Positions 3,183 to 41,977 of a stretch of DNA of 64,000 nucleotides are shown one piece after another. Origin of the DNA: Armatimonadota bacterium. GTDB lineage: Bacteria; Armatimonadota; Fimbriimonadia; Fimbriimonadales; GBS-DC. The first letter of the stretch is position 1; every line of letters starts with the position of its first letter. The translations under genes were made by a program, and so were the position numbers. The notes beneath the pieces were generated by a model, which was not told the origin of the DNA, did no database searches, and saw only the letters and a list, made by a program, of their open reading frames with translations. The stretch spans positions 347-64,346 of the forward strand of contig JBCNVA010000141.1 in NCBI GenBank assembly GCA_039630445.1, given 5' to 3'.

Positions 3183-3207
3183 GCATGGACGCGCGTACAA
3201 GGCGTCT

Positions 3208-7262: not shown

Positions 7263-9185
7263 TCACCGCTCCAAGAAGTAGCGCACAGTCGTGACCACCA
7301 CTTTGGGCTTGCGCATCAGCGCCAAGCGAAGGATCCACGCCGACTGATTATGCAACAAGTGATGCCACCACCGCTTCGGATAGAACTCTGGAATGACCAC
7401 GGTAAGTTGATCCAGTCGCTCGCGCTCGAACAGCTCATCGATGTAATCCTCTATCGGCTCGATCAAGGAGCGATGCTCTGAATCGATGATTCGGAGCGGG
7501 ATGTCGGGCACATACTGCTGCCATTCGCGCTGGAGTTTCTCGGCAGCGGGGGTGACGAGATGCAGCGTGGCTTCCTCCGTTTTGGAGCGGCGCAGCACGC
7601 GGCGATAGATAGTGGGCGGACGCGGATCCACATTGATATGCAGGGCTTCAATCTGGTCAGTGGGGGCAATCTGCCGCGCATAGTCCAGAGCCTGCAGCAC
7701 GCCCCGATGCACGCTCGGCACCAGCACCAACACCCGATGGCGCGGCACACCGCGCGGCGCTTCGTAGCCCTCAGGATGCAGTTGCACCCGCAGATTCATA
7801 TAATGCTCATGCACACGATACATCAGGTAAATCAGGATGCCGATGGCAACCAGCGTGATCCACGCGCCATAGCGGAAGTTCACTATCAGCTGCGTGAGGA
7901 ACACCATGCAGGTCACCAGCGAGCCGAAGCCGCTGATGAGCATGCCGATCTGCCAGCGGGGCGGACGCACGCGCAAGAAGCGTCGCGCCATACCCGCCTG
8001 CGAGAGCGTGAAGGAGATGAACACACCCACCGCATAGAGCGGGATCAGCGCGTGGGTGTCGCCCCGAAAGTAGATGACCAGCAGCGCGGACGACACACCC
8101 AGCAGCAGGATGCCGTTATTGAACACCAGGCGGTCGCCCAGATTGGCTAACTGGCGTGGTGCATAGCGGGCATTCGCCAAGATCGAACTCAGGCGCGGGA
8201 AGTCCATATAGGCGGTGTTGGCTGCCAGCACCAGGATCGCCATCGTCGCCACCTGCACCACATAATAGAACCATTCCAGCGGCGTGCCCTCCAGCACGGT
8301 ACGGGCAAGGCGCGAGGTGAGTGTTTCCACAATCTGCCCGTTCTCCACGCGCGGCACGATATGGAAATGCGCGGCGGTGTAGGTGATGCCCAGCACCAAT
8401 CCCGACAGGATGAATGCCATCAGCAGCAGAGTGGTCGCCGCGTTGCGCGATTCGGGCGCCTTGAACGCCTGCACGCCGTCCGAAATCGCCTCCACGCCTG
8501 TCAGCGCGGAGCAGCCTCGCGCAAATGCCATCGCAATCAGCATAAAGCTCAGCGCGGTCGGCGTTCCAAAGTAAGGAGGGTATGGAGCTGGATCGATATC
8601 GCCTGCAAATCCGCGCCACAGCCCCACAAGGATCAAAATCGCGAAGGTCAGCACGAAGCCATAGGTAGGCGGGGCGAACACGGCACCCGATTCACGCACC
8701 CCGCGCAGGTTGATCAGCGTCATCAACGCGATAAACAGCACATTGAGCAGGATGCGATAGGGCAACAGGGCGGGGATTGCCGAGACGATTGCGTTTACGC
8801 CCGCCGCGATGCTCACCGCTACTGTCAGCACATAGCCGACCAGCAGAGCCGCCGCCGCCAACAGCCCCCAGAACTCGCCCAGATTCTCCCGCGCCACATT
8901 GAACGCGCCGCCGCCTTGCGGGTAAGCATACACCGTCTGACGATAGGAGAACACCACGATAAACAGCAGCGCAACAATTGCCAGCGAGATGGGAAATGCC
9001 AGCGACAAACCTGCTTCCCCCGCCGCCCACAGCACCATCATCATCTCCTCGGTGGCGTAAGCCGACGAGGAGAGTGCATCCGAAGCGAACACTGGCAGCG
9101 CCAGAAGCACAGGAAGCCGTTCGTGCCGTACACGACGAGTCGATAGGGGCGCGCCAACCAGCAACCGCCAGACTCTACCCAGCAT
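7263..9185 (-). CDS. APC-superfamily amino acid/polyamine permease with long cytoplasmic C-terminal extension
   Basis: 640 aa. N-terminal ~460 aa form about 12 hydrophobic helices (SSAYATEEM..., GGAFNVAREN). C-terminal ~170 aa are hydrophilic. Confidence 0.75.
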   Translation of the reverse strand: MLGRVWRLLVGAPLSTRRVRHERLPVLLALPVFASDALSSSAYATEEMMMVLWAAGEAGLSLAFPISLAIVALLFIVVFSYRQTVYAYPQGGGAFNVARENLGEFWGLLAAAALLVGYVLTVAVSIAAGVNAIVSAIPALLPYRILLNVLFIALMTLINLRGVRESGAVFAPPTYGFVLTFAILILVGLWRGFAGDIDPAPYPPYFGTPTALSFMLIAMAFARGCSALTGVEAISDGVQAFKAPESRNAATTLLLMAFILSGLVLGITYTAAHFHIVPRVENGQIVETLTSRLARTVLEGTPLEWFYYVVQVATMAILVLAANTAYMDFPRLSSILANARYAPRQLANLGDRLVFNNGILLLGVSSALLVIYFRGDTHALIPLYAVGVFISFTLSQAGMARRFLRVRPPRWQIGMLISGFGSLVTCMVFLTQLIVNFRYGAWITLVAIGILIYLMYRVHEHYMNLRVQLHPEGYEAPRGVPRHRVLVLVPSVHRGVLQALDYARQIAPTDQIEALHINVDPRPPTIYRRVLRRSKTEEATLHLVTPAAEKLQREWQQYVPDIPLRIIDSEHRSLIEPIEDYIDELFERERLDQLTVVIPEFYPKRWWHHLLHNQSAWILRLALMRKPKVVVTTVRYFLER

Positions 9186-12839: not shown

Positions 12840-13704
12840 CTCCAGCGGAATAGAGTTTGGCTCGCAGCCCCGTCGCCAGGAGCGTCAACATAAATAAAAC
12901 CCCGCTTGCAGTCGCCATCGAACCTGCAATCGAGACATCCAGCAGACGCGCAATGGTATAACCCAGCAACACCGCCAGCCAGCCGAAGGCAACGCTCATG
13001 AGAATCATCATCGGTAATCGGCGCGCAATCAGCAGGGCTGTCGCAGGTGGAACTACTAAAAATGCCAGCACCAAGATCGCGCCCACCACCTCGAAGCTGG
13101 CGACCACCACTAGGGCTACCACCGCCATGAGCAGATAATACACCCCGCGCATAGGAATTCCTGCTGTCTGCGCATAAATTGGATCAAAAGTGCTGGCAAG
13201 TAGCTCCTTATACAGCCCAACGGTCAACAGCAAGGCAACGATTAACACGCCGCTCAGCGTCCAGATGGCACGGGGACCCAGCACCATATCGCCTACTATC
13301 CAGAGGTCCCACGGCACATAGGCGATTTCACCATACAGCACGCAATCAAGGTCTAAATCGACCTGCCCACTGTAGCGCGAGATGAGCAGCACCCCCAGCG
13401 CAAAGAGCGCAGTGAAAGTCACGCCCATCGCGGCGTCGGGATGAACGAATCGCCGTTGGCTGAGCCACTGAATGATGGCAGTGCTGAGCAGACCGACTGC
13501 ACCTGCGCCTAACAGCATCGGCACTGGGGCGCGGCTGCCCGTCAGCCAGAACGCCAGCACGATACCTGGCAAAACGGCGTGGCTAATCGCGTCGCCCAGC
13601 AGCGCCATCCGCCGTAGAATCAGCCAGCAGCCCACCAGCGCACTGCTGGTCGCCACCAACCCGCCTGCTAACAGCACCCACAGCGTACTCTGCCAGTCGA
13701 TCAT
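12817..13704 (-). CDS. metal (Zn/Mn/Fe) ABC transporter permease, ZnuB/MntD/TroD type
   Basis: 295 aa, all hydrophobic. ABC-3 family pattern (LGDAISHAVLPGIVLAF). Confidence 0.85.
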   Translation of the reverse strand: MIDWQSTLWVLLAGGLVATSSALVGCWLILRRMALLGDAISHAVLPGIVLAFWLTGSRAPVPMLLGAGAVGLLSTAIIQWLSQRRFVHPDAAMGVTFTALFALGVLLISRYSGQVDLDLDCVLYGEIAYVPWDLWIVGDMVLGPRAIWTLSGVLIVALLLTVGLYKELLASTFDPIYAQTAGIPMRGVYYLLMAVVALVVVASFEVVGAILVLAFLVVPPATALLIARRLPMMILMSVAFGWLAVLLGYTIARLLDVSIAGSMATASGVLFMLTLLATGLRAKLYSAGGEGVGKS

Positions 13705-23545: not shown

Positions 23546-23620
23546 TGGTGAGCCGGGTGGGATTCGAACCCACGACCAACGGCTTAAAAGGCCGCTGCTC
23601 TGCCCCTGAGCTACCGGCTC
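23546..23620 (-). tRNA. tRNA-Lys (anticodon UUU), CCA encoded
   Basis: Hand-folded cloverleaf on the minus strand: GAGCCGG-TA-GCTC-AGGGGCA-GAGC-A-GCGGC-CTTTTAA-GCCGT-TGGTC-GTGGG-TTCGAAT-CCCAC-CCGGCTC-A-CCA. Confidence 0.95.
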
Positions 23621-24915: not shown

Positions 24916-25815
24916 CGGAAGCTGTTCCACTTCCTCGCGGGTGGGCAGGGAGGGCTGTGCACCCCAGCGGGTGACAGCGATCGCAGCGACACGCTGACCG
25001 AACTGAACCGCTTCATGGATGGAACGCCCCTCGGTAAGGGCGACGGTGAACCCTGCGACGAAGGCGTCGCCAGCTGCCGTTGTGTCCACCGCCTGCACGG
25101 GCAGCGCGGGCTGACGATGAATAGTGCCCTCCGCGTTGTAAATCGCGCCGCGTGCACCCAGCGTGATCACCCCCTGCGCACAGCCCCTTTCGAGCAGCAT
25201 ACGCAGCACAGCCTCCTCGTCCACCTCACCCCCAACGCCGATCAGCTGACGCGCCTCCGTCTCGTTCGGGATCAGCACCGTGACCATCTGCATCAAGTCA
25301 GGAGCGAGCAGACAGGCGGGCGCAGGGTTGAGAATGAAAGGCACACCGTGTCGCCGTGCCAGCTGGGCAGCAGTTGCCACAGTGTCCATCGGGATCTCCG
25401 ACTGGGCTATCACAGCGTCCGCCTGAGCAATCGCAGGTTCGGCGCGTTCCACATGCTCAGGGCGCAGGTGCATGTTCGCGCCGGGCGCAACCACAATCGC
25501 GTTCTCCCCATAAGGTGAAACAGCAATCAGTGCCACGCCCGATGGATGTTCTGCCGTGCGCACCACATAGCGGGTATCGATCCCTTCCTGCGTGAGGTTC
25601 TCCACCGCAGCCTCGCCGAACGAATCGGTGCCGATGCAGCCGATGAAGCAGACCTGTGCGCCCAGCCGCGCTGCTGCCACCGCCTGATTCGCCCCTTTGC
25701 CACCCGGAATGACGCGCACGGCATCACCCAGCACCGTCTCGCCCGGTGCCGGAATCGCAGGCACCTGCACCACCAGATCGGTGTTCGAACTGCCAACCAC
25801 GACCAGCCTGCTCAT
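24910..25815 (-). CDS. rbsK: ribokinase
   Basis: VVVGSSNTDLVV...GGKGANQAVAAARLG...DTTAAGDAF. PfkB ribokinase signatures. Confidence 0.9.
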   Translation of the reverse strand: MSRLVVVGSSNTDLVVQVPAIPAPGETVLGDAVRVIPGGKGANQAVAAARLGAQVCFIGCIGTDSFGEAAVENLTQEGIDTRYVVRTAEHPSGVALIAVSPYGENAIVVAPGANMHLRPEHVERAEPAIAQADAVIAQSEIPMDTVATAAQLARRHGVPFILNPAPACLLAPDLMQMVTVLIPNETEARQLIGVGGEVDEEAVLRMLLERGCAQGVITLGARGAIYNAEGTIHRQPALPVQAVDTTAAGDAFVAGFTVALTEGRSIHEAVQFGQRVAAIAVTRWGAQPSLPTREEVEQLPL

Positions 25816-26016
25816 CGCCCTACCTGGTGGGAAAGTATAGCATGTTAGCGGCTTCTGTTAGCTGATTTGCTCATCCCCTCGGCAGCAGTGGAAAAAATCG
25901 GCACAGGCGTACGAGTTTTCAAGAGCTATTCGGCAAATCGGGACTAAAGTCCCAACTGCCCATCTGCGTGCAGGGATTATCATTAAGGAGAGAGAGAATC
26001 GAAAGGAGGTGCGACG

Positions 26017-26703
26017 ATGCATACCGAACATGGTTGGCGGCAGTGGCTTTTGCAAAAAGCGGTCTGGCTCTGCAGTTGCGAGGCGGAGGCAGAAGATCTT
26101 GTACAGGACTGTCTCCATGCTTTCTATCGCTGTTTCTGCTTCTATCCTTGGCAACGCCCGCTGGAACCTGACGAACTCCGTCACGCCCGTGCTTGGTGCA
26201 AACGCAAACTTCAGGCGCTGGCAATAGACCGAGCCAAACAGCCCCACCGCCAGCGCGAATTGCAGCTGCTGGATACCGAGATTGGGGAGTATCTGGCAGT
26301 AAGCAACCCAGAGGATGGCCTGATTTTACAGATTGCGCTTGAGCAGTTCATCGCCCACTTACCTGTCTACCTGCAGAAGGTTGCCGAGTTGTACAATCGG
26401 GGGTATGATTATAGAGAAATCGCACGAAGGCTGGAATTATCGGAGGGCAGTGTGCGGCAATACATGAGGCGGATCAATAAGTTGGGGCAGGCATTTTTCG
26501 GGCTCGATGTTCACAAATCGGCGGTTTCGGTCGTTAATAGAGATGGAAGCCCCAAAGAGGGTTTCCCAGAACAATTGGAGGAGGAGCCAAGCGATGAGAA
26601 GACGCAAGGTATTGCTGATGAGCGCGGTTGCGCTGACGATAGCGAACTTGGTGGCACTACCGAACACCCTTGCCGTCCTCGCCGAACTCAGCGGGGGGGG
26701 TAA
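26017..26703 (+). CDS. sigma-70 family (ECF-like) RNA polymerase sigma factor
   Basis: Region-2-like AEDLVQDCLHAFYR...RAWCKRKLQALAIDRAKQ. Region-4 HTH YDYREIARRLELSEGSVRQYMRRI. AAGGAGG lies upstream of ATG 26017. The 3' ~110 nt overlap the next gene in another frame, so the functional C-terminus is uncertain. Confidence 0.7.
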   Translation: MHTEHGWRQWLLQKAVWLCSCEAEAEDLVQDCLHAFYRCFCFYPWQRPLEPDELRHARAWCKRKLQALAIDRAKQPHRQRELQLLDTEIGEYLAVSNPEDGLILQIALEQFIAHLPVYLQKVAELYNRGYDYREIARRLELSEGSVRQYMRRINKLGQAFFGLDVHKSAVSVVNRDGSPKEGFPEQLEEEPSDEKTQGIADERGCADDSELGGTTEHPCRPRRTQRGG

Positions 26704-27208
26704 AGTGTCAGCAAGTCTTGTCCCTGGCAAAGGATGCGGTTGTTCCGGAGGGTCTACCATTTTGGACGAGTCCAAGTTGAAGCAACAGCTACGGCAGAAC
26801 CACTTGGTGATGGCTCAGATATTCCCGATGGGTGATAACACACCGGGGCCTTTGCCTCCAGTAATTGGAGTGCCTCTACCCCCAGGTGGAGGTGGCCCAG
26901 CAAGGACTGGCTGCGAAGATTGCGGTCGTCCTGCAGGTACAGTGCCTGCCAATCAATTCTGTATGAATCCACCGAATGCCGATTGTAATGGATGGATACC
27001 TTGGGATAACGACTACATTTACCAGTGGTATGTTATAGTGTACCACTGTCCCAATGGTTCCTTCTATGTATGCCATGGACCGTTTCGCACAGAGGAGTGC
27101 TGCCGAACGAGAAATACCCGTATCCAACCTTGCGAGCCGCCTCCTACAGATCCCTTTGATCCTACACAACCACTTCTCCCGTGTCGGTCAAGAATTCCAA
27201 GTCCATAG
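26594..27208 (+). CDS. exported Gly/Pro/Cys-rich protein, function unknown (204 aa, 12 Cys)
   Basis: ORF track 26507..27208. I start at ATG 26594 (MRRRKVLLMSAVALTIANLVALP: basic residues then a hydrophobic helix), preceded by GGAGGAGG (26577-26584). Cys motifs GCGC, CEDC, CC. Followed by a 9-bp hairpin. Confidence 0.6.
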   Translation: MRRRKVLLMSAVALTIANLVALPNTLAVLAELSGGGKVSASLVPGKGCGCSGGSTILDESKLKQQLRQNHLVMAQIFPMGDNTPGPLPPVIGVPLPPGGGGPARTGCEDCGRPAGTVPANQFCMNPPNADCNGWIPWDNDYIYQWYVIVYHCPNGSFYVCHGPFRTEECCRTRNTRIQPCEPPPTDPFDPTQPLLPCRSRIPSP

Positions 27209-27231
27209 GTTCTTAACTGCCGTTCTCGTTT

Positions 27232-27257
27232 GGGGGTGAAGTATCGAATTCACCCCC
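27232..27257 (+). terminator. stem-loop GGGGGTGAA-gtatcgaa-TTCACCCCC downstream of the Cys-rich gene
   Basis: 9-bp perfect stem, 24 nt after the stop. No T-tract. Confidence 0.4.
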
Positions 27258-27295
27258 AGCGAGACCAAATACAGAGTGACGAGAGGTGATCAGCG

Positions 27296-27940
27296 TTGCA
27301 GATGAAGAGCATGGTGGCAAACTACGCTGTTTATAAGGGACGCTGTATCGGTTTCACTCTGCTGGAGCTACTGGTAGTGGTGCTGATTATAATGCTATTG
27401 GTAGCTCTAATACTACCAGTGCTGACCACCGCACGCAAGCACTCCTATCAAGCAATATGTATTTCTAACATGCGTCAAATCCACACTGCTTGGATGCTCT
27501 ATATTGGGGACTATGGAGGTTCAGTCACTGACACGACATGCTGGCCAAAATGGCAATCGTTGATCCCTTATATAAAAGATAACCGCGTGCTGATATGCCA
27601 TAGTGACCCCGTTCACGGTTGGTGGAGGCTTCTTGGGGAAGAACCTGACAGCAGCTATGCATTTCTTGAGCCTCCCATGGCAGCGGATGTTCTGCGGTTG
27701 GATCCTAATCCTGGAATTGTAGGATGCTTCCTTCATGGGCAGTGTCGGATGAGACATACGCCGCTTTGTAAAGGACTGGTACTCAGAATACGCGCGGATG
27801 GCTCTCTTGGGCGTGGGCGTTTCCTTCTTCTCTGCTTCCCAAACGGACACGGCTGGACATCCTGGTACTTCTTTACCGATGCGCCCTGTCCACCACGGTA
27901 CCGATTAGGAGGCATACCTTGTGACCCGCCTTCATGGTGA
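27296..27940 (+). CDS. prepilin-type N-terminal cleavage/methylation domain protein (DUF1559-like pseudopilin), Cys-rich C-terminal half
   Basis: G|FTLLELLVVVLI prepilin motif. SNMRQIHTAWMLYIGDYGG resembles the DUF1559 head. 9 Cys after the cleavage site. TTG 27296 has GAGGTGA 6-7 nt upstream; alternative ATG at 27302. Confidence 0.75.
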   Translation: MQMKSMVANYAVYKGRCIGFTLLELLVVVLIIMLLVALILPVLTTARKHSYQAICISNMRQIHTAWMLYIGDYGGSVTDTTCWPKWQSLIPYIKDNRVLICHSDPVHGWWRLLGEEPDSSYAFLEPPMAADVLRLDPNPGIVGCFLHGQCRMRHTPLCKGLVLRIRADGSLGRGRFLLLCFPNGHGWTSWYFFTDAPCPPRYRLGGIPCDPPSW

Positions 27941-27983
27941 GAAGGCAACAATAAACACAAACTGAAGGAGACCGAGACCGACG

Positions 27984-28418
27984 ATGCGACGGAGCATAGA
28001 AGGCTGGCTTATTCTCTTGATCACCGCTCCGCTGTTGATGTGGGGCGTAATCAAGATTAGCGTGTGGCTGCTTTCAGTAATTTTAGGCACGCCAATGGCG
28101 TTTGGGAAGCCCATCCCTTCGCTGGCAGAGATAGTTCTGTTTTGGCTGTTTGCAGCACCTGTGGCCGCAGGAGCCTACCATTATGTAACGCAGTCGGACA
28201 GACGAAAGCAATTAGGAGCGTCCGTTGCGATGATTGGACCGCCAGCGTTGCTGTTTGCAATTCAGCTTATCGACAGGTCAGCCCAGAGCATTTCTGCACG
28301 CGCATGGTTGATGGATACGGGGTTGCTCGTAGCCTTGTTGGTGGGGTTAGCCGCTTATGTGTGGCTCACACTCCATTTAGCCCGCCTGCTCGCCTCTTGG
28401 CAGTCAATGCACGGCTGA
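27984..28418 (+). CDS. hypothetical 4-TM membrane protein
   Basis: 144 aa with four hydrophobic stretches. AAGGAG upstream. No family recognised. Confidence 0.5.
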   Translation: MRRSIEGWLILLITAPLLMWGVIKISVWLLSVILGTPMAFGKPIPSLAEIVLFWLFAAPVAAGAYHYVTQSDRRKQLGASVAMIGPPALLFAIQLIDRSAQSISARAWLMDTGLLVALLVGLAAYVWLTLHLARLLASWQSMHG

Positions 28419-28544
28419 CTTCCTTTATCTGATACGAATGAAGATTGCAAGTATTAAAGTATAGATTATCTGACCAGGCTACCCCAAGCAAGGGATATCC
28501 ACAAGGTGGCAAGATGGGTTATACTATATCCCAAGGAGGGAGCG

Positions 28545-30575
28545 ATGAAACGCAAGATCACCATCGAGGATCTGTTCCGCATTCGGTTGCTGGGCAACCC
28601 CCAGATTGCGCCTGACGGCAGTCGGGTGGTGTTCGTGTATAAGTGGATCGACGCGGAAAAGAACAAATACTTCTCCAACTTGTGGATGGTGCCGTTTGAA
28701 GGGGGCGAGGCACGCCCGTTCACCTATGGCGAATGGAGCGATTCGTCACCACGCTGGTCGCCTGACGGCAAGCAGATCGCTTTTATAAGCAACCGCCAGA
28801 AGCCTAAAAGCCAGATTTATGTGATCCCCGCGGATGGCGGCGAAGCACGCCCCATCACCCATCTGGAGGAGGGCAGCATCGGCGAGTTCGCCTGGTCGCC
28901 CGACGGCACGCGCATCGCCTTCACCTATCGCGAGACCGCACCCGAATGGCGTGAGGAGGCGGTCAAACAGCGCAAGGAGAAGGGGCTATCGAACCCACCC
29001 CGCGTAATCACCCGTGCCTACTGGCGACTAGACGGCGATGGCGCGTTCGTAGACCAGCGCTATCATCTTCATGTAGTGGATGTACGCACAGGCGAAACGC
29101 GCCAGCTCACCACCGATCCAGCTTATGAGGAATACAGCCCCACCTGGTCGCCCAACGGGAATTACATCGCGTTCCTGTCGAACCGTCGCCCTGACCCCGA
29201 TAATGACCCTGATCGGATCGACATCTGGGTGGTTCCTGCGGAGGGTGGCGCGATTCGGCGCGTGGAGACGCCCGAAGGACCCAAGTATCTCCTGCGCTGG
29301 TCGCCTGATGGACGCTATTTAGCCTATCTGGGGCATCCGTATCCTGATGATCCTTATCCTCGCTGCGATCATCTTTGGCGCGTGTCACCCGAAGGGGGCG
29401 ACGCGGTGAATCTCACCCCGCATCTGGATAATGTGATTGGTGTCGCCACACTGACCGATGTGCGTGAGTTTGGTGGTGGTGGCGTGCTCTACTGGAGCGC
29501 AGATGGGCAGTTCCTCTACTTCTTGGTCAGCGAGCGGGGCGGCGTCTATCCCTATCGGGTGCGCGTCGACGGCAGCCACTTCGAGCGGCTGCTGGAAGGC
29601 GACTTCGAGATCGCCGATTTCACGCTGGCGCAGGGCGAGCATCGGTGTGCGCTGCTTTATGGCACGCCAACGATGCCCCACGAAATCTACGCGGGCACTT
29701 TGCAGGGCAATACGCTGAGCATTAGCCCGCTCACTGCGCTCAATCAGCCCCTGCTGGACGAGGTAGAGATCGCGACCCCTGAAGAGTTCGAGGTGGAGGC
29801 GGACGACGGCGTCAAAATCCACGGCTGGCTGCTGAAACCGCCCGATTTCGACCCCGCGCGTCGCTACCCTGCTATCCTGATGATTCATGGCGGTCCGCAT
29901 GCGCAGTACGGGCGTGTCTTCTTCCACGAATTCCAGCTGACGGCGGCACAGGGCTATGTGGTGGCTTACACCAATCCGCGCGGCAGCTGGGGCTATGGCG
30001 AGGCGTTCGCCCGCGCCATCAAAGGCGACTGGGGCAACCGCGACTTTCGCGACCTGATGCATGTGGCGGACTATCTGGCAAGCTTACCCTTCGTAGATGC
30101 CGAACGAATGGGCGTGGCAGGCGGCAGCTACGGCGGCTATATGACCAACTGGATTGTGGGGCACACTGACCGCTTCAAAGCCGCCATCACCGACCGCAGT
30201 GTGGTCAATCTGGTGAGCATGGCGGGCACCTCCGACTTCCCGATGCTGCCCAATCGCTACTGGCAGGGCAACTTCTGGGATGAGCCGCAAAAACTCTGGG
30301 AGCAGTCGCCCTTGGCGTATGCGGCGCGTATCCGTACGCCGCTGCTGATTGTGCACAGCGAGGGCGACCTGCGCTGCCCGATCAGCGAAGCCGATCAGCT
30401 GTTCGCTGCGCTCAAACGGCTGGGACGCGAAGTGGTCTATGTGCGCTACCCGCTCGAAAGCAGCCACGGGCTATCGCGCAGCGGACCGCCCGACCTACGC
30501 GCCGATCGCCTGAAACGCTACCTGGAGTGGTGGGCAAAGTATCTACAGCCGTCCGCCCAAAGCAGGGAAGGCTAA
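28545..30575 (+). CDS. S9-family serine peptidase (acylaminoacyl-peptidase / prolyl oligopeptidase type) with beta-propeller N-domain
   Basis: WSPDG repeats (TolB-like propeller). Catalytic GGSYGGYM, and later D...H. ATG 28545 preceded by AAGGAGGGAG. ORF track GTG 28506 rejected. Confidence 0.9.
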   Translation: MKRKITIEDLFRIRLLGNPQIAPDGSRVVFVYKWIDAEKNKYFSNLWMVPFEGGEARPFTYGEWSDSSPRWSPDGKQIAFISNRQKPKSQIYVIPADGGEARPITHLEEGSIGEFAWSPDGTRIAFTYRETAPEWREEAVKQRKEKGLSNPPRVITRAYWRLDGDGAFVDQRYHLHVVDVRTGETRQLTTDPAYEEYSPTWSPNGNYIAFLSNRRPDPDNDPDRIDIWVVPAEGGAIRRVETPEGPKYLLRWSPDGRYLAYLGHPYPDDPYPRCDHLWRVSPEGGDAVNLTPHLDNVIGVATLTDVREFGGGGVLYWSADGQFLYFLVSERGGVYPYRVRVDGSHFERLLEGDFEIADFTLAQGEHRCALLYGTPTMPHEIYAGTLQGNTLSISPLTALNQPLLDEVEIATPEEFEVEADDGVKIHGWLLKPPDFDPARRYPAILMIHGGPHAQYGRVFFHEFQLTAAQGYVVAYTNPRGSWGYGEAFARAIKGDWGNRDFRDLMHVADYLASLPFVDAERMGVAGGSYGGYMTNWIVGHTDRFKAAITDRSVVNLVSMAGTSDFPMLPNRYWQGNFWDEPQKLWEQSPLAYAARIRTPLLIVHSEGDLRCPISEADQLFAALKRLGREVVYVRYPLESSHGLSRSGPPDLRADRLKRYLEWWAKYLQPSAQSREG

Positions 30576-36214: not shown

Positions 36215-37927
36215 ATGACCATGAAAACGAGAAGGAGATTGGTGGCGGTATTAGTGAGCAGTGTGTGGGTTTATCAGGGATTGGCACAAGCGTTGCGCAC
36301 GCCTGACGGTACGCTCTGGGCTGGAACAACCTTTACTTTGCGCGCGATGGCGACCGGCTCTACGGGACAGCTGATGGCGCTTTCCAACATGGCACAGGTG
36401 CGGGTGGGGCAGATTGTCCGCTGGCAGTGGGAGTATGAGTTGCCCCCCTACCTAACCGTTACCTCGGGTGAGGGCTGGTTCACGCTGCTGGTGCAAAACA
36501 AGGGTAATGGTATCGACGCTCTGCAACTGGGGATCGCAACCAGCGAGGGTTTGGGAACCAGTCCGTGGCAAATTAGCCTCTTTGAACAGCTGGAGCCGAA
36601 TCAGCTCTTTGGAGATGCGAGACCCGTTAGCGAATCCACCACCCCCTTTATGCCAATGGAGCATCGTCGTTTGTTCATTCGGGTACGCCCACCATCTGAC
36701 AGAAACACCGATGGCGTCTTTCTCACGCTCAACATGCGTTCAGTAGTTGGTGCACGAACATTACCCTTCGCTGAGTTCGTCGCAGGCGCAGAAACGCTTA
36801 TCTATCCCCACACCACAGCCAGCACTTGGACAGGCTACTCGCTGGCAGCACCGCCTCAATTGCTGAATGGACGGCTCTACTGGATTGCTGCTATGGATTC
36901 GCGTGTATACTTCTTTTCCACCACACGCCCGCTCAATGCCGACAATACTTTCTACAACAACATCCAGTACGAAGCGGCCTTGCGCGGAATCGTCCCTAGC
37001 GGACAAGGCGCAGTGATCGGTAATCGCTGGTATCTGATGAATAGGCAGGGATTCATCGCTTACTTCGATTGGACCCAGGCGACTGGTGGGGTAAATGTCT
37101 CCGTGCAGTGGCTTTCGATGGGTGGTCTGGTTGCCAATCCCAATTTGCCGATGGTTAGCGATGGTACTCGTCTCTATTTCGCGTTGACCAACCAACAACT
37201 GGGGATATACCATCCCACCACTAACGGGTTCAGCACGCTGCAAGTGGCTAACCCCACCCCTATTCGGATAGTGCAGCGGCTGCCGCAGGGGCTTGTCTTG
37301 GTGGGGCGCGATGGCGGGCGGTTTGACCTGATTGGGTCTGGCAATCTGGTAGAAAGCACAATGATGCTAGGTAGCGCAGATTCGATTATAGGAGCAAGCG
37401 TGGACGAGCAGCGCAACACGCTGCTGGTTGCCTGCGGCGCACGGCTCGGTTGCTACCACCTGCTGCAGCGCCAGTGGCTCTGGAGCGTAGCGGTTGATGC
37501 GCCGATAGTTGCCCCTCCTGTCTACGACTCGACTACCGACTCGGTCTACATCTTCACCCGCGATGGCTGGCTCCATGCCTTTGACGCTGCAATTGGTGTT
37601 CCATCTCTGTTCTATCCGCACCAGCTCATCCCTGATGCGCCTGTCATCAAAGCCGCTATGCAAGTTTTGAGCCGAGCTGACCGCAAAGTGCCCTATATCT
37701 ACTTAGCAGCGCAGCTGGACACAGGGGATGTGCTTACGACCCGTGTGCTGCAAGTGACTGCCGTGAACCCGTTCAATCGATTCTACAGCACCTCCGTTAT
37801 GCAAGGCGCTGTGTTAGGTGAAAGCCTGCTGTTTACGGGCACAAGCAACCGCGATTTATTGCTCGTCTGGTGCTGGAGTGGAGGCGACACGAATCGGGGA
37901 CGGTTCTATGGCTTCCGTCTGAGATAG
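36215..37927 (+). CDS. secreted protein, N-terminal beta-sandwich-like region plus PQQ/BamB-like beta-propeller region, function unknown
   Basis: Signal peptide MTMKTRRRLVAVLVSSVWVYQGLAQA. C-terminal repeats such as VYIFTRDGWLHAFDA and LYWIAAMDSRVYFF suggest propeller blades. Confidence 0.6.
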   Translation: MTMKTRRRLVAVLVSSVWVYQGLAQALRTPDGTLWAGTTFTLRAMATGSTGQLMALSNMAQVRVGQIVRWQWEYELPPYLTVTSGEGWFTLLVQNKGNGIDALQLGIATSEGLGTSPWQISLFEQLEPNQLFGDARPVSESTTPFMPMEHRRLFIRVRPPSDRNTDGVFLTLNMRSVVGARTLPFAEFVAGAETLIYPHTTASTWTGYSLAAPPQLLNGRLYWIAAMDSRVYFFSTTRPLNADNTFYNNIQYEAALRGIVPSGQGAVIGNRWYLMNRQGFIAYFDWTQATGGVNVSVQWLSMGGLVANPNLPMVSDGTRLYFALTNQQLGIYHPTTNGFSTLQVANPTPIRIVQRLPQGLVLVGRDGGRFDLIGSGNLVESTMMLGSADSIIGASVDEQRNTLLVACGARLGCYHLLQRQWLWSVAVDAPIVAPPVYDSTTDSVYIFTRDGWLHAFDAAIGVPSLFYPHQLIPDAPVIKAAMQVLSRADRKVPYIYLAAQLDTGDVLTTRVLQVTAVNPFNRFYSTSVMQGAVLGESLLFTGTSNRDLLLVWCWSGGDTNRGRFYGFRLR

Positions 37928-37943
37928 GTACAATACACTTAGC

Positions 37944-38873
37944 ATGTGGGCGATTGAGACGCGCGGACTGCGCAAAGTCTTTCGCTCTCTTCTGGGGGGC
38001 AAACCGATCGTCGCAGTCGACCATTTAGACCTGCAAGTGCCCATCGGATGCGTGTTCGGCTTTTTGGGACCAAATGGCGCAGGCAAGACCACCACTATCC
38101 AGATGCTGATTGGCAATGTGCGCCCGACGGCGGGACAGGCGTGGGTGCTGGGCTACCCAGCCGGCTCCATTCATGCTAAAAAGCGACTGGGCTTCCTGCC
38201 CGAAAAGTTTCAATTCCATGACTTCCTCACGGCAGAGGAGCTTCTGCGCCTACACGGACGCTTAGCCCGCATGGAGCGTAGCCTGTTGAATCGTCGCATC
38301 GATGAGGTGCTGGAGCTGGTGGGGCTGACCGAGCGGCGCAAGAGCAAGATCCGCGAGTTCTCGAAGGGTATGCAACAGCGCATCGGGCTGGCACAGGCGA
38401 TTCTGCACGACCCCGACCTGGTGATTCTGGACGAGCCAACCTCGGCGTTGGATCCGCTGGGGCGACGGCGCGTGCGCGAGGTCATCCAGTACCTCAAGCA
38501 GCGAGGCAAGACGGTGTTTCTCAACTCCCACCTGCTCTCGGAGGTGGAACTAAGCTGTGACTATGTGGCGATCCTAAACAAGGGGCGCGTGGTCAAACAG
38601 GGCGTGCTGGAGGAGCTGCTGGTCAATCGCTCGGTGGTCACTATTGAGCTGCGCCAAGTGACGCCTGCTGTGCTGGAGGCGCTCAGGCGAGTTGCCCAAA
38701 AGGTGCAGCCTGTCGACGAGCGGCGTGTCGTAGCCGAAGTGGCGCAGGAGACACAAGTGCCTGAGCTGGCGCGCGCCGTTGTGACGGCGGGTGGTGAACT
38801 GACGAGCTTCCAGGCGCAGCGGGAAAGCCTCGAGGATCTCTTCATCCAAACAATCGAGGGGGAGGGGAAGTAG
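37944..38873 (+). CDS. ABC transporter ATP-binding protein (ABC-2 / DrrA-like)
   Basis: Walker A GPNGAGKTT, signature FSKGMQQR, Walker B LVILDEP. Confidence 0.9.
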   Translation: MWAIETRGLRKVFRSLLGGKPIVAVDHLDLQVPIGCVFGFLGPNGAGKTTTIQMLIGNVRPTAGQAWVLGYPAGSIHAKKRLGFLPEKFQFHDFLTAEELLRLHGRLARMERSLLNRRIDEVLELVGLTERRKSKIREFSKGMQQRIGLAQAILHDPDLVILDEPTSALDPLGRRRVREVIQYLKQRGKTVFLNSHLLSEVELSCDYVAILNKGRVVKQGVLEELLVNRSVVTIELRQVTPAVLEALRRVAQKVQPVDERRVVAEVAQETQVPELARAVVTAGGELTSFQAQRESLEDLFIQTIEGEGK

Positions 38874-38875
38874 AG

Positions 38876-39715
38876 ATGCTGGTTATCATCACCTTGACGC
38901 TGCATGAAGCTTTGCGCCGACGCGCTTTTCTTGGCACTATCATCATCCTCTTGGCGCTTTACGGACTGAGCTTTTTGCCCAAGGCGTTCCATCAAGCGCT
39001 GGGCGGCAGTCCGCAAAGCTTCGAAATGGGCGTGAATCTTATGATCCTGTTTGGAGTGGACATCATCAAGTTTTTCTCGTCGGTGTTGGCGATTTTGCTG
39101 TGTGCAAGCGCGATTACCAGCGAGATTGAGCGTGGCTACTTGGCGGCGATTTTGCCGCGTCCACTGCACCGTTTTGAACTGTTTCTGGGCAAGTGGCTGG
39201 GCGTGATGCTCTTTTGCGGGGCGAATGCGCTGCTCTGGACGGCATTACTATGGGTTTCGGTAGCGTTGCAGACCCGCCCGCGGGCTGAGATGTGGCACGC
39301 CCTGCCTTATGTATTGCTCTATCCTCTGCTATATGGCACGCTGGCACTGGCGCTCTCCAGTTTCAGCAGTGCCCCCATCGCCTCGATGTTCACGGTGGCA
39401 GCAGGCGCATTCGCCTACTTTGCAGACCATTTCCTGCGCCCGATCGCTGCCTTTTTCGATGTGGAACTGCTACAGAAAATCGTGTACCTCTCGGAATGGG
39501 TGGTGCCGATGGCGGTGCTGAAACGGCTGGTCCAGGCACGATTGGATGTTCTGGTTCCACCTGGAATGAACGATCCCCCACCCTTTGGCACGCCCGAACT
39601 ACTGCGTTTTCTCAACCCTCCTGTGCAATCGTTTGATCTGGCGTATGTTGCGCTTTACATCTTGCTGGCGTTGGTGGTGGGCTTGGTCATCTTTCAGTAT
39701 CGTGATGTGCAGTAG
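38876..39715 (+). CDS. ABC-2 family transporter permease (NosY-like)
   Basis: 279 aa with about 6 hydrophobic helices. SAITSEIERGYLAAILPRP is typical of ABC-2 permeases. Confidence 0.75.
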   Translation: MLVIITLTLHEALRRRAFLGTIIILLALYGLSFLPKAFHQALGGSPQSFEMGVNLMILFGVDIIKFFSSVLAILLCASAITSEIERGYLAAILPRPLHRFELFLGKWLGVMLFCGANALLWTALLWVSVALQTRPRAEMWHALPYVLLYPLLYGTLALALSSFSSAPIASMFTVAAGAFAYFADHFLRPIAAFFDVELLQKIVYLSEWVVPMAVLKRLVQARLDVLVPPGMNDPPPFGTPELLRFLNPPVQSFDLAYVALYILLALVVGLVIFQYRDVQ

Positions 39716-39734
39716 GGGCACTCAGGGCGTGAGG

Positions 39735-39740
39735 TATACT
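39735..39740 (+). promoter_or_regulatory. -10 hexamer TATACT, 7 nt upstream of the site-2 protease ATG (leaderless start)
   Basis: gaggTATACTtggcacgATG. No SD. Confidence 0.5.
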
Positions 39741-39747
39741 TGGCACG

Positions 39748-40404
39748 ATGGATTGGGTTGAGCAAGCGGTAAGCTTTGTCCTGTGGCTGATGGCGGTGCT
39801 GGTGAGCCTCACCGTGCATGAGTTCGCCCATGCGAAGTATGCGCGCTGGGCGGGCGATCCGACACCAGAGGTGCAGGGGCGCGTGACGCTTAATCCGCTG
39901 GCTCACCTGGATCCGATGGGCACGCTGATGATTTTGATTGCGGCGTTTTCGGGGTACGGCTTCGGCTGGGGTAAGCCGGTGGAGATCAATCCGGGTTTCT
40001 TTCGCCATCCGCGCCGCGACTGGGTGATGTGCGCCTTCTGGGGACCACTTTCGAACATTTTGCTGGCGCTCATGTTTGCCGGGCTTGTGCGCCTGATGGT
40101 TGCGGCTCAGTGGGGATTGGGCACCGTCTTTTTTGAGTTTGCGTGGATTATGGTGCTGGCGAATCTGGGGCTGGCGCTTTTTAATCTGCTGCCCATTCAT
40201 CCGCTGGATGGCTCCAAGGTGCTCTCGGGCTTTCTGCGCGATGTGTTCGACCGCCGCTACTGGTCGTGGCAGATAACCTATGGTCCAATCCTGTTTCTGG
40301 TGCTGGTGCTGTTTGTGCCTGTGCTGACGCAAGGGGCGGTGTATCCTATCTGGATAGTGCTGGGACCCATCTACAACTTCGCTGCGCAACTGCTTCTGGG
40401 GTAA
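39748..40404 (+). CDS. site-2 protease family (M50) membrane metalloprotease
   Basis: HEFAHA zinc motif in TM1, and NLLPIHPLDG further on. Confidence 0.85.
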   Translation: MDWVEQAVSFVLWLMAVLVSLTVHEFAHAKYARWAGDPTPEVQGRVTLNPLAHLDPMGTLMILIAAFSGYGFGWGKPVEINPGFFRHPRRDWVMCAFWGPLSNILLALMFAGLVRLMVAAQWGLGTVFFEFAWIMVLANLGLALFNLLPIHPLDGSKVLSGFLRDVFDRRYWSWQITYGPILFLVLVLFVPVLTQGAVYPIWIVLGPIYNFAAQLLLG

Positions 40405-40419
40405 AATAGAAAGAGACAG

Positions 40420-40512
40420 GGAGCGGTGCCCGAGTGGCTGAAGGGACACGACTGGAAATCGTGTAGCCTCCCAAAAGGGGGCTCGTGGGTTCGAATCCCA
40501 CCCGCTCCGCCA
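40420..40512 (+). tRNA. tRNA-Ser (anticodon GGA), long variable arm, CCA encoded
   Basis: Hand fold: GGAGCGG-TG-CCC..GGG-A-CACGA-CTGGAAA-TCGTG-(variable arm AGCCTCCCAAAAGGGGGCTC)-GTGGG-TTCGAAT-CCCAC-CCGCTCC-G-CCA. Confidence 0.95.
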
Positions 40513-40552
40513 TTTTGTTTATGGGGAATCTGGCAGGAGGTCGGGGAGAGCG

Positions 40553-41977
40553 GTGAGCCGATGGTTCTGGCGCGTGTTGCTTACTATCGGCGGGTTGCTC
40601 GGCTCCTATGTGGGTATGAGCTGCCTGCTGTTTGTGTTGAGCGTGCATCGCGCCAGCCTCTCGCAGCAGAGTGACCACGGGCATCCTTTTCCCTTACCAG
40701 AGCCGTCTGATCGCCTGCTGATTGTCGCGCCGCATCCCGATGATGAAGTGCTGGGCTGTGGTGGGCTGATTGCTGAAGCGGTTCGGCGGGGCGCGCAGGT
40801 GCGCGTGGTCTTTTTGACCAACGGCGATGCCTATCCTGCAGCAGCGACCTTGCTGTGCCGAAGTACGCCGACGGCACGCGACTTTATCAAGCTGGGCACG
40901 CTTCGGATGCAGGAGGCGCGGCGGGCAGGAGAGCTGCTGGGACTTCCCGCCCATGACCTCATCTTTCTGGGCTATCCCGATCGCCAGCTCTGGCGGATGG
41001 CGACCAACGGCGACAAACCCCTGCTTGCATCCACAACTCGCTGTGCGCGTGTGCCCTATGCTGAGGCATTCCGTCCTCACGCGCCCTACCGCGCCTCTGC
41101 GCTCGTGGAGGACCTGCGCTGCATTCTTAGCGATTTTCAGCCCACGCAGATTTTCGTGACGCACCCGCTGGACGATCATCCTGATCACATGGTCGCCTCA
41201 CTCTATGTGCGTGAGGCGATCGCGCAGGCAAAGGAGCGGGGCGAGCTGCTGGTTAATCCCCAAATCGTTTACTACCTCGTCCACAGGGGCGATTGGCCGC
41301 TCCCGCAAGGCTACTATCCTAACCAGCCCCTTGTGCCACCGCGAGGGCTAACGCATGAGCCGTGGCTTCACCTACCCCTGCAAGAGGAGATAGGCGCAAT
41401 AAAGCGTCAAGCGCTTCATGCCCACGAATCACAATTTGCAATCATGTCGCGCTTCCTAAGCAGTTTTTTGCGCACCAACGAGCTGTTCCTGAGGGATCAA
41501 ACGCAGCCCGCGTATACTTTCCAAAACCCTGTGGATGATAGCCCGCTGTTGCGCCTGCGTCCAGGGGCAGACCTGCGCCAGATGGAGGTGGAGCCTGCTC
41601 GTCTCGGCTTACGCCTTCGGCTCGAAACACGCGACCCTTTGACCGCGCCCCTGCGCCTGCACATCACTTTGATCCTGATATCACGCACAGGAGAATGGCA
41701 GACACGCACATGGCTTTATGTGCCAGGGCGCGCGCGGGCATTTGATGGGCTGGTGGAAGTGCAGGGGCAGCAACTCCAGTTCTGGCTGCCCGTGCCTGAG
41801 CTGCGGCGCGCCCGACGCGCCTATCTGCTGGTGCAGTCACGCCTGTATCAAGTGGAGCTGGATCGAAGTGGGCTGTTGCCTATTCCGCTCGCGCCTTCGA
41901 GCGAGCATGCAATCGGGGGATCGGATGCCCCATCGCGTGGAGCAGACCGGCAATCTGCTCCATCAGGTAGTCGGTGA
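40553..41977 (+). CDS. PIG-L/LmbE-family deacetylase with N-terminal membrane anchor and ~200-aa uncharacterised C-terminal domain
   Basis: LLIVAPHPDDEVLGCGGLIA...VVFLTNGD. GTG start. The last 98 nt overlap the convergent plsC-like gene. Confidence 0.75.
   Translation: MSRWFWRVLLTIGGLLGSYVGMSCLLFVLSVHRASLSQQSDHGHPFPLPEPSDRLLIVAPHPDDEVLGCGGLIAEAVRRGAQVRVVFLTNGDAYPAAATLLCRSTPTARDFIKLGTLRMQEARRAGELLGLPAHDLIFLGYPDRQLWRMATNGDKPLLASTTRCARVPYAEAFRPHAPYRASALVEDLRCILSDFQPTQIFVTHPLDDHPDHMVASLYVREAIAQAKERGELLVNPQIVYYLVHRGDWPLPQGYYPNQPLVPPRGLTHEPWLHLPLQEEIGAIKRQALHAHESQFAIMSRFLSSFLRTNELFLRDQTQPAYTFQNPVDDSPLLRLRPGADLRQMEVEPARLGLRLRLETRDPLTAPLRLHITLILISRTGEWQTRTWLYVPGRARAFDGLVEVQGQQLQFWLPVPELRRARRAYLLVQSRLYQVELDRSGLLPIPLAPSSEHAIGGSDAPSRGADRQSAPSGSR

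Follow-up and report, generated by a model that had tools for sequence, protein, structure and literature searches.

Introduction

Contingency loci switched by homopolymers are a textbook trait of host-adapted pathogens (Neisseria, Haemophilus, Campylobacter, Helicobacter). Here we analyse an islet of four same-strand open reading frames (ORFs) at 25850-28420 of a 64-kb stretch of DNA from an Armatimonadota bacterium (contig JBCNVA010000141.1; the whole stretch is called the window and positions are counted in it). They encode an extracytoplasmic function (ECF)-type sigma factor, an exported protein with 12 Cys residues (ORF2), a Cys-rich type-IV-pilin-like protein (ORF3) and a small protein with four transmembrane (TM) helices (ORF4). 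All four had been listed in a first-pass annotation made from the sequence alone, and recomputing the ORFs returned each at the coordinates given there. That annotation did not contain the poly-G tract found in this analysis, a run of eight G residues exactly where the signal peptide of ORF2 gives way to the mature protein. The reading we favour, at somewhat better than an even chance, is that the islet holds one unit, in the ON state, of a lineage-specific cassette that encodes a switchable, diversifying exported protein with a pilin adaptor and a membrane partner.

The closest parallel is provided by the pilC genes of Neisseria, whose tract reportedly lies within the signal-peptide region, as Jonsson et al. 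are said to have described in 1991. In N. meningitidis, pilC1, which encodes a type IV pilus tip adhesin, passes from ON to OFF by slippage of G10 to G9 (PMC5231331). ORF2 is like pilC1 and pilC2 (about G9-G13) in having a G tract near the 5′ end of a gene for an exported, putatively pilus-associated protein other than a pilin, and in that one G would suffice to switch it. It differs in having no sequence or size relation to PilC (~110 kDa, against ~18 kDa for mature ORF2), in a tract that also ends an overlapping sigma ORF, giving three states, in its hypervariable 12-Cys body, and in its hosts, which are free-living Armatimonadota, many of them hot-spring metagenome-assembled genomes (MAGs), whereas Neisseria is a host-adapted pathogen. 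The Opa genes of Neisseria carry CTCTT repeats in the leader-peptide coding region and form many independently switching paralogues. As in Opa, the repeat in our module uncouples a conserved leader from a variable mature protein and occurs in multiple copies, four tracts being found in one related locus (L022); unlike the module, Opa uses a pentanucleotide repeat and encodes beta-barrel outer-membrane proteins without linked sigma, pilin or TM genes.

Contact-dependent inhibition (CDI; CdiA-CT/CdiI) and Rhs systems share with the module a conserved N-terminal and a variable C-terminal part, a co-varying neighbour, replacement at a junction and partial units. The module, however, has no recognisable toxin or immunity domain, encodes small Sec-type proteins instead of the giant proteins of type V secretion systems (T5SS), type VI secretion systems (T6SS) or Rhs, and adds a co-varying pilin-like partner and a dedicated ECF sigma. 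The DUF1559/H-X9-DG prepilins of Planctomycetota, Verrucomicrobiota and Armatimonadota resemble ORF3 in the G/FTLLE site (here and below a slash marks cleavage) and in the head CISNMRQI...Y..DYGG, and the C-terminal W-Y-F-F-T-D of ORF3 aligns with the N-x-x-F-x-DGS region of a relative, P0009. ORF3 differs from them in scoring below threshold, in its mature length of ~195 amino acids (aa), in its richness in Cys and in being paired with a TM protein in a sigma-led cassette.

Fimbriimonas ginsengisoli encodes 30 rpoE-type sigma factors, 79 PulG-like pseudopilins and PilBCDQMT (PMC4072686). Non-pilin proteins at the tips of type IV filaments have been found to dock on one cognate minor pilin by addition of a C-terminal beta-strand (PMC13533445). 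The PilC/PilY1-PilK pairs are like the module in that ORF2 and ORF3 co-vary and many ORF2 C-termini carry a short Pro-ended motif; the comparison is pure analogy, with no homology of module proteins to PilY1 or PilK. Conotoxins combine a conserved signal, a moderately conserved pro-segment and a hypervariable mature region on a fixed Cys framework. Their likeness to ORF2 is organisational only, these being eukaryotic venom peptides, and points to an extracellular binder under diversifying selection.

Length and reading frame of the poly-G tract

The tract (G8, 26693-26700, plus strand) is a candidate switch for slipped-strand phase variation and is the sole G/C run of at least 8 within the window. 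The module recurs in ~20 loci (L002, L003, L007/8 and L011-L022), in which the sigma gene, the Cys-rich ORF and the pilin-like gene keep the same order, and in ~200 kb of these loci G/C runs of at least 8 are present only as homologous tracts, always with G on the coding strand. The tract stands at the same junction in 20 of 20 cases examined and measures 5-16 G.

In the window, signal peptide and body are in frame (ON) and the sigma ORF ends at a TAA directly after the tract. Signal peptide and body are in frame in 7 of the 20 tracts, near one third, and 8 of 11 out-of-frame loci retain a full-length body with 12-14 Cys. All three frame states are seen, with sigma fused to the body in L021, P0010 and P0023; L014 likewise has its sigma fused in frame, to a body cut off by the contig end. 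Among close relatives the tract is G8 in L012 and G11 in L016, whose flanks are 95% identical, and G12 in L013, G11 in L014 and interrupted in L020, at 87-92% identity. Within single genomes it is G15 and G10 in a 96%-identical 236-bp repeat of L011, and G16, G14, G13 and G12 in one array (L022). Marks of a contingency locus are present: a simple repeat, unusual for the window, lies in the reading frame, and its length differs among relatives, most of which keep the downstream ORF intact. Because length and frame vary among near-identical loci and the bodies are mostly intact, the tract bears what would be the expected signature of a phase-variable contingency locus, unlike that of a fixed-direction frameshift or of simple decay, and we infer DNA-level switching inside a population.

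The sequence past the tract may itself be used in translation. At 26701-26707 (plus strand) TAA-A-GTG places a body-frame GTG 1 nt beyond the sigma stop, a possible site of reinitiation or internal start. In one frame a stop (TAA or TAG) abuts the tract; a body-frame GTG, ATG or TTG follows 4-5 nt past the tract in 10 of the 20 tracts, and an ATGA stop/start overlap lies 14 nt past it in 6 further ones. Body-frame starts near the tract are present in the window, L002, L003, L007, L012, L015-L018 and L022. That the G tract doubles as a Shine-Dalgarno or termination-reinitiation site for a leaderless body is speculative.

The exported protein ORF2

ORF2 (26594-27208, plus strand; 204 aa) consists of a signal peptide, a conserved N-module and a hypervariable body with a 10-Cys framework. 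The first-pass annotation had given it a Shine-Dalgarno sequence of its own, an overlap of ~110 nt with the sigma ORF and 12 Cys, including GCGC, CEDC and CC. Indeed, the stretch GGAGGAGGAG lies at 26577-26586, 7 nt upstream of the ATG, the overlap is exactly 110 nt, in different frames, and the Cys count and all three motifs stand; the five basic residues at the N-terminus proved to be four (RRRK). The signal peptide (26594-26683, plus strand; MRRRKVLLMSAVALTIANLVALPNTLAVLA) has an n/h/c layout and a VLA/E site, cleavage being predicted before ELSGGG. Its consensus in the family is MRRRKVLLMSALALTIANLVALPNTLAALA/ELSGGG, in which A-N, P-x-T-L and E are invariant, and its coding segment is the best-conserved nucleotide stretch across all modules. 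Conservation of the ORF2 signal peptide (26594-26686) goes far beyond that of generic Sec signal peptides, and its 'LPNTL' resembles a sortase motif in mirror-image position.

The overlap is under selection in the signal-peptide frame and not in the sigma frame. Entropy at codon positions 1, 2 and 3 of the signal-peptide frame is 0.73, 0.37 and 0.91, a coding pattern, and amino-acid entropy of the overlap is 0.82 in this frame against 1.50 in the sigma frame, in which the pattern is reversed. By codon-position entropy the final ~36 codons of sigma, which make up the 110-nt overlap, are free of protein-level selection, and because the sigma-frame pattern is reversed and the signal-peptide frame is coding-like, this C-terminal stretch of sigma is, on the codon evidence, unselected read-through. 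The sigma frame is open, without a stop, from sigma4 to the tract in every locus. The start of ORF2 was set at 26594, and that of the longest ORF at 26507 rejected, because substitutions further upstream are conservative in the sigma frame only and radical for ORF2.

Past the cleavage site the family shares a conserved N-module, SLVPGKGCGCSGGS.PL.ESQLKQQL, followed by hypervariable bodies of 130-170 aa that form at least six BLAST clusters on a fixed Cys framework. C48, C50, C152, C160, C169, C170, C180 and C197 are invariant or nearly so, the last six aligning in all body types, which are otherwise unalignable, and nearly all full-length members have exactly 12 Cys. Searching 5.8 billion clusters with ORF2 returned one relative, P0001 (69-73% identity, every Cys retained), an exhaustive profile search returned 19, and searches of Pfam, NCBIfam, PADLOC and, with the family profile, PDB gave no match to ORF2. 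These sequences suggest that ORF2 is exported by Sec and disulfide-folded on a framework of about six disulfides. The proposal in the first-pass annotation that the islet makes disulfide-rich surface, pilus-associated or secreted proteins gains support from these exported and pilin-like Cys-rich products. About 12 of 22 ORF2 family members end in Pro, often as ...PSFP, ...PSAP, ...PSP or ...CP, which may be a C-terminal tag. At ~10300-10330 of L013, a run of ten Gly (PPGGGGGGGGGGQPP) inside the ORF2 body is encoded by mixed GGN codons, with no homopolymer.

ORF2 also exposes a systematic failure of annotation. In L001, a public contig of SRR28200751 that is 100% identical to window positions 25815-28563, ORF2 is wholly uncalled, and other records split it, shorten it or fuse it to sigma; the cause is the sigma overlap and the poly-G tract. 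A 61-aa ORF is called inside ORF2 in another frame at 1240-1425 of L001 (window 27054-27239), and ORF3 and ORF4 are cut to 187 and 107 aa. These L001 gene calls are probably mis-annotations brought about by the overlap.

Exchange of cassettes among related loci

The clearest view of exchange comes from L012 and L016, which are 94.6-95.1% identical on both sides of the module: identity stops exactly at the tract and restarts past the module, and the intervening cassettes, of 2.9 kb and 1.6 kb, are unrelated. In most module pairs nucleotide similarity is confined to the signal-peptide segment of ~110-130 bp and ends at the tract, and in L011 this segment is 96% identical between tandem modules that are otherwise unrelated. 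Clusters of ORF2 bodies, TM proteins and pilins co-vary as triads, the type-A body going with the 4-TM and pilin types of the window. The TM proteins fall into at least eight sequence families that have no detectable mutual similarity and co-vary with body type. The arrays of L007, L011 and L022 mix triads, and L007 and L022 hold TM+pilin units without a body. In L022, an 8-kb array in KatS3mg019, a single sigma gene precedes four signal-peptide/tract segments, and the signal-peptide segment at 13315-13476 is an orphan. The module has the layout of polymorphic toxins, with a conserved N-terminal region, a variable C-terminal region and an adjacent co-varying small protein.

These loci also bear out the idea that the four genes form one module. 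The co-occurrence and synteny check proposed with the first-pass annotation found the genes together in ~20 related loci, with the difference that the TM family varies: a small multi-TM gene stands beside the pilin gene in most of them and comes from several unrelated sequence families. Hidden Markov models built from the window proteins show one layout in every locus: a sigma gene overlapping the signal peptide, the Cys-rich ORF and then one or two pairs in which a 3-4-TM protein and a pilin-like protein rich in Cys stand in either order. Across Pfam, NCBIfam and PADLOC the only matches are to sigma and N_methyl families and, as first thought, no described system is recognised, and a literature search on phase variation or homopolymers in Armatimonadota, on phase-variable ECF sigmas and on DUF1559 with sigma factors gave no description of the module in the papers searched. 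All named genomes with the module are Fimbriimonadales or Armatimonadota MAGs, the rest being metagenomes.

L002, a 2-kb contig that encodes P0001, matches the window in gene order, with identities of 73% for ORF2, 44% for ORF3 and 56% for ORF4. L003, a metagenome contig at NCBI reached through ORF3 relatives, has the sigma gene and all three of ORF2-ORF4, and pyrH-frr-uppS come next. L007 and L008 were reached with a DNA pattern taken from the signal-peptide coding stretch, and their module is flanked by an FG-GAP protein gene and aroA; L009 and L010, with 2 of 5 DNA-pattern matches, were judged chance. A search with the signal-peptide and N-terminal alignment gave 11 further loci, and patterns specific to the type-A body gave nothing in genome and metagenome contigs. 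The genomic contexts differ, and the GC content of the module is always under that of its flanks, down to 0.33 against ~0.60-0.66. Degenerate copies occur in L003 (truncated body), L019 (62-aa remnant) and L020 (interrupted tract and 3-Cys remnant).

In L002 the 4-TM gene is followed by an A14 run, after which the ORF2 upstream/Shine-Dalgarno/ATG segment appears a second time (1997-2065), and in L019 a translation-initiation segment of ~56 nt precedes two different Cys-rich genes (1381-1437 and 3665-3720). Because the initiation segment is repeated after ORF4 in L002 and occurs twice in L019, the sequences indicate tandem units without a sigma gene. L002 was also considered as a 2-kb circle, its ends sharing 14 nt; a tandem second unit fits better, compare L019 with two and L022 with four. 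At L011 7898-9886 and L019 1349-3051 the Cys-rich exported protein is a variant one, with 11-13 Cys and a different signal peptide, and an exported protein of ~340 aa comes next; the variant unit of L011 carries its own sigma.

Proposed mechanism and alternatives

In the reading that we favour, the ECF-type sigma would transcribe the operon, with the promoter of its own gene (25970-26000) as the probable start. ORF2, begun within the unselected tail of sigma, would leave through its Sec-type signal peptide, and its 12-Cys fold would form outside the cytoplasm. Slipped-strand mispairing would make the G8 tract hypermutable, and a change of ±1 G would part the signal peptide from the body (export OFF); the same slip would alter the C-terminus of sigma, which one of the three frames would fuse to the body. 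The segment 3′ of the tract (body, multi-TM and pilin-like genes) would be swapped as a block, with the signal-peptide segment as left anchor. The most likely role would be to show a diversifying extracellular protein at random, ON in some cells and OFF in others; the protein would work with its own pilin-like adaptor, borne on a type IV filament or released by it, and with its own inner-membrane partner, under frequency-dependent selection for evasion of phage or predators, adhesion, kin discrimination or antagonism. That sigma is autoregulated, that ORF2, pilin and TM protein are in contact, and what their biological role might be, we infer from sequence.

A more elaborate version, possible in our view but doubtful, is a combinatorial system of surface variation or antagonism, in which arrays of cognate triads (12-Cys effector, membrane partner and adaptor pilin) would stand under one ECF sigma, poly-G tracts would act as three-state gates and new triads would arise by recombination at the signal peptide. 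Its states would be an exported effector, a leaderless and maybe cytoplasmic effector made through a G-tract Shine-Dalgarno, and an effector-sigma fusion feeding back on transcription. If true, this would be the first contingency-locus system described in the phylum and in free-living bacteria, many from hot springs, and would open a functional approach to the huge numbers of pilin-like genes in Armatimonadota and the PVC phyla. Conservation of a multi-copy locus in free-living Armatimonadota, many of them hot-spring MAGs, suggests strong frequency-dependent selection by phage, predators or kin competition. The module defines two new protein families, the 12-Cys exported protein and its membrane partners, and for the first time places some of the 30 ECF sigmas and 79 pseudopilin-like genes reported in Fimbriimonas in a specific genomic setting. 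To our knowledge, coupling of a regulator's C-terminus, in three frames, to the export signal of its target is undescribed.

Several points weigh against the reading that we favour. Co-variation of body, TM and pilin could come from linkage alone. The AlphaFold2 (AF2) model of ORF2, from a 6-sequence alignment, has a predicted local distance difference test (pLDDT) score of 36.8, is unusable and supports no particular activity, and no gene of type IV pilus or type II secretion machinery was found within the module. The differences in tract length are between assemblies only and homopolymers are error-prone, although Illumina consensus sequences seldom contain errors at G8-9. Slippage during transcription or on the ribosome could replace DNA slippage or add to it. 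Since a body-frame start follows 4-5 nt after half of the tracts, OFF alleles may still yield a cytoplasmic body that lacks the signal peptide. Finally, the candidate promoter is present in 6 of 13 sigma upstream regions only, and five remaining ones have a sigma-70-like extended -10.

Other explanations of the same genes draw on much of the same evidence. ORF2 might be the disulfide-rich toxin of a polymorphic toxin-immunity cassette, with the TM protein as immunity and the pilin-like protein helping secretion or delivery, and phase variation and the ECF sigma would then restrain costly expression; this is a narrower form of the preferred reading, not strictly exclusive of it, and we consider it rather unlikely, though the foremost of the rivals. 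It would suit the conserved N-terminus ahead of a hypervariable C-terminus on a Cys scaffold, the eight or more unrelated small TM families that track body type, the wholesale replacement between the 95%-identical genomes of L012 and L016, and the body-less TM+pilin units of L007 and L022, which are like orphan immunity genes, along with the orphan signal-peptide segment of L022. ELSGG moreover resembles the end of a double-glycine leader. The leader with this ELSGG(G) is, however, of the Sec-type n/h/c layout and not that of a ribosomally synthesized and post-translationally modified peptide (RiPP), and none of the modules holds a C39-peptidase ABC exporter or a modification enzyme. No toxin, bacteriocin or immunity family is matched in Pfam, NCBIfam, PADLOC or PDB, and co-variation is as tight for the pilin-like gene as for the TM gene, something a simple toxin-immunity pair would not require; an OFF toxin together with an ON immunity gene would be plausible. 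A sigma gene followed by a single-pass protein is the textbook sigma/anti-sigma arrangement, and ORF2, directly downstream of and overlapping an ECF sigma, has one N-terminal helix and an extracytoplasmic domain, so that it might be a single-pass anti-sigma sensing through its Cys-rich domain, with pilin and TM protein as regulon. We rejected this role and regard it as highly improbable, because the 4-5 residues before the helix leave no cytoplasmic domain, because the sigmas of L012 and L016 are 95% identical yet the ORF2 N-modules and bodies are unrelated, and because L022 has one sigma and four ORF2 starts, each a signal-peptide/poly-G segment. Sigma-less units also exist (3′ end of L002; L019 1381-2041), and no module gene matches zf-HC2, RskA, FecR or any other of the anti-sigma domain families searched.

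The remaining alternatives concern the tract. It might be a programmed recoding site, at which ribosomal frameshifting or RNA-polymerase slippage would give fixed product ratios without a heritable switch. No locus lacks the tract, the majority of copies are out of frame with intact bodies, and in L003 and L007 a stop follows right after the tract in the out-of-frame frame (G9-TAA). At +1 sites of the prfB type the stop is similarly placed and a G-rich Shine-Dalgarno-like sequence stimulates the shift, and long homopolymers promote transcriptional slippage. We nevertheless think recoding improbable: the shift needed varies in sign and size among loci with three frame states, tract length varies even between 96%-identical repeats in one genome, about one third of tracts are already in frame, a conserved slippery heptamer and a stimulatory structure downstream are both absent, and L002 has no stop beside its tract. 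That the islet is decaying AT-rich junk or pseudogenes, its frame differences being homopolymer assembly errors, is hardly credible. Degenerate copies (L003, L019, L020) and gene callers that miss or split ORF2 would fit this, but all four genes are conserved as proteins, with identities of 44-73% between loci, the framework of Cys residues is strictly kept, the signal peptide has a signature of purifying selection, and ~20 assemblies, made independently in different studies, contain the tract, which is absent elsewhere in ~200 kb of loci.

The sigma gene and its upstream elements

The sigma ORF (26017-26703, plus strand) encodes 228 aa, with a putative sigma2 at about aa 8-80, sigma4 at about aa 107-155 and a conserved tail, FFGLDVHKSAVSVVNRDG, ending near aa 177. 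The call of a sigma-70/ECF-like protein preceded by AAGGAGG (26003-26009) agrees with the match to Sigma70_r4_2 (1.2e-7, 31.6 bits, cutoff 25.7), which establishes sigma4; Sigma70_r2 is matched weakly (17.3 bits, cutoff 24), and TIGR02937 sigma70-ECF, at 2.9e-10, reaches 40.0 bits, below its cutoff of 42.9. Length and the motifs AEDLVQD...AWC..KL..LA.D agree with ECF sigmas (group IV). Sigma70_r4_2 is matched by 11 of 11 family sigmas and Sigma70_r2 by 5 of the 11 (best 3.2e-7), and the motif FFG.D....VN.SG after sigma4 is common to all 11.

Two upstream elements stand out. The palindrome GGGACTAAAGTCCC (25940-25953, plus strand), a candidate operator, lies within a conserved block of ~24 nt and occurs, in GCAAAT[C/A]GGGACTAAAGTCCC, upstream of the L007 sigma (60% identical) in surroundings that are unalignable. 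A candidate ECF-type autoregulatory promoter at 25970-26000 (plus strand) reads GCAGGGATT, 16 nt, AGAATC. The pattern GCAGGRATY-N12-16-MGAATC also matches upstream of the L012 and L016 sigmas, with close variants in L011b, L019 and L015 at -41 to -53 from the ATG. Taken together, GCAGG(A/G)(A/G)(T/C)(C/T) lies 41-53 nt before the ATG in 6 of 13 sigma genes, that of the window among them, and in these 6 a CGAAT/CGTAT-like element follows 13-16 nt after the GCAGG box; box and element are a candidate family-specific ECF promoter. The notion that the module carries its own sigma is thus upheld, with a candidate promoter in front of it; a shared ECF -35/-10 before all four genes, which had been suggested as a check, is not seen, the single such site in the module being the one upstream of sigma.

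ORF3, ORF4 and the intervening hairpin

For ORF3 (plus strand), an ATG at 27302 is the likelier start rather than 27296, and the ORF ends at 27940. Its N-terminus, ...KGRCIG/FTLLELLVVV, leads into a long alpha-1 helix, and the globular domain, which is particular to the family, has 9 Cys. The match to N_methyl (1.1e-4, 22.1 bits, cutoff 21.2) and the GspG-like N-terminus identify a class III signal, and a search with the profile of the family picks out alpha-1 of GspG, PilA, PilE and geopilin (best 1.2e-10). The AF2 model (pLDDT 67.6) has a helix at 22-72 and a beta-sheet whose C-terminal edge is poorly ordered; a structure search with the globular domain gave no match. The prepilin leader and the 9 Cys had been seen in the first pass, along with a DUF1559-like head, which fared less well: the window protein has no Pfam match to DUF1559 (PF07596, SBP_bac_10), its relatives score 14-23 bits over the first ~40 DUF1559 positions, and one of them, L007 4278-4970, passes the cutoff of 23.3 with 25.3. 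ORF3 is, going by these matches, related to the DUF1559 head, and we do not file it as a member.

ORF4 (27984-28418, plus strand), the small partner of this ORF2/ORF3 type, has 4 hydrophobic helices, as had been predicted. It is conserved in L002 (56% identity) and also in L003 and L005, and the TM proteins match no known family in Pfam or NCBIfam. In the gap between ORF2 and ORF3, the perfect 9-bp hairpin reported at 27232-27257 is present and extends to ~27224-27264 (plus strand), with no following T-run; the region folds at a dG of -35.5 kcal/mol (z -3.6). L002 has no such hairpin, its intergenic gap being 8 nt. The hairpin is a possible attenuator or mRNA-stabilising element.

Position, composition and borders of the islet

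The islet lies between a PfkB kinase gene (-) and an S9 peptidase gene (+). Its GC content is 0.524, against 0.606±0.017 (minimum 0.557) for other 2.57-kb stretches of the window (z -4.9), GC at third codon positions is 0.49-0.60 in its genes and 0.71-0.76 in adjoining ones, and its tetranucleotide L1 distance is 0.372, against 0.186±0.021 (maximum 0.243) for the rest of the window. The composition shift noticed in the first pass is thus a true outlier within the window, and the G+C hand counts of 27/60 at 27421-27480 and 40/60 at 30001-30060 were both exact. The deviant composition is that of a genomic island. Mobility markers are absent around the islet, as first stated: no integrase, adjoining tRNA or border repeats were found, the closest tRNA being tRNA-Lys (23546-23620), two genes off, and no empty site was found among the related loci. 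A scan of 25500-28800 against Rfam gave no RNA family. A phage origin was rejected because no relatives were found in viral contigs. The further claim that the islet was horizontally acquired from outside is unproven. Because the family was found only in Fimbriimonadales/Armatimonadota, every copy is low in GC, and L012 and L016 differ by replacement, the sequence evidence favours a lineage-specific multi-copy cassette, swapped and replaced inside the lineage, rather than a foreign import.

Elsewhere in the window

AT skew reaches +0.26 to +0.31 at 3001-4000, 8001-9000 and 50001-51000, where minus-strand genes encode polytopic membrane proteins (MFS, amino-acid permease and NuoM-like), and -0.26 at 39001-41000, which partly coincides with an ABC-2 permease gene (38876-39715, plus strand); these skews are explained by T-rich hydrophobic coding in membrane-protein genes. 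A 570-aa ORF without a Pfam match occupies 36215-37927, just upstream of the ABC-2 transporter genes (ATPase 37944-38873 and permease 38876-39715), and lies in a second, milder low-GC region (0.556-0.563).

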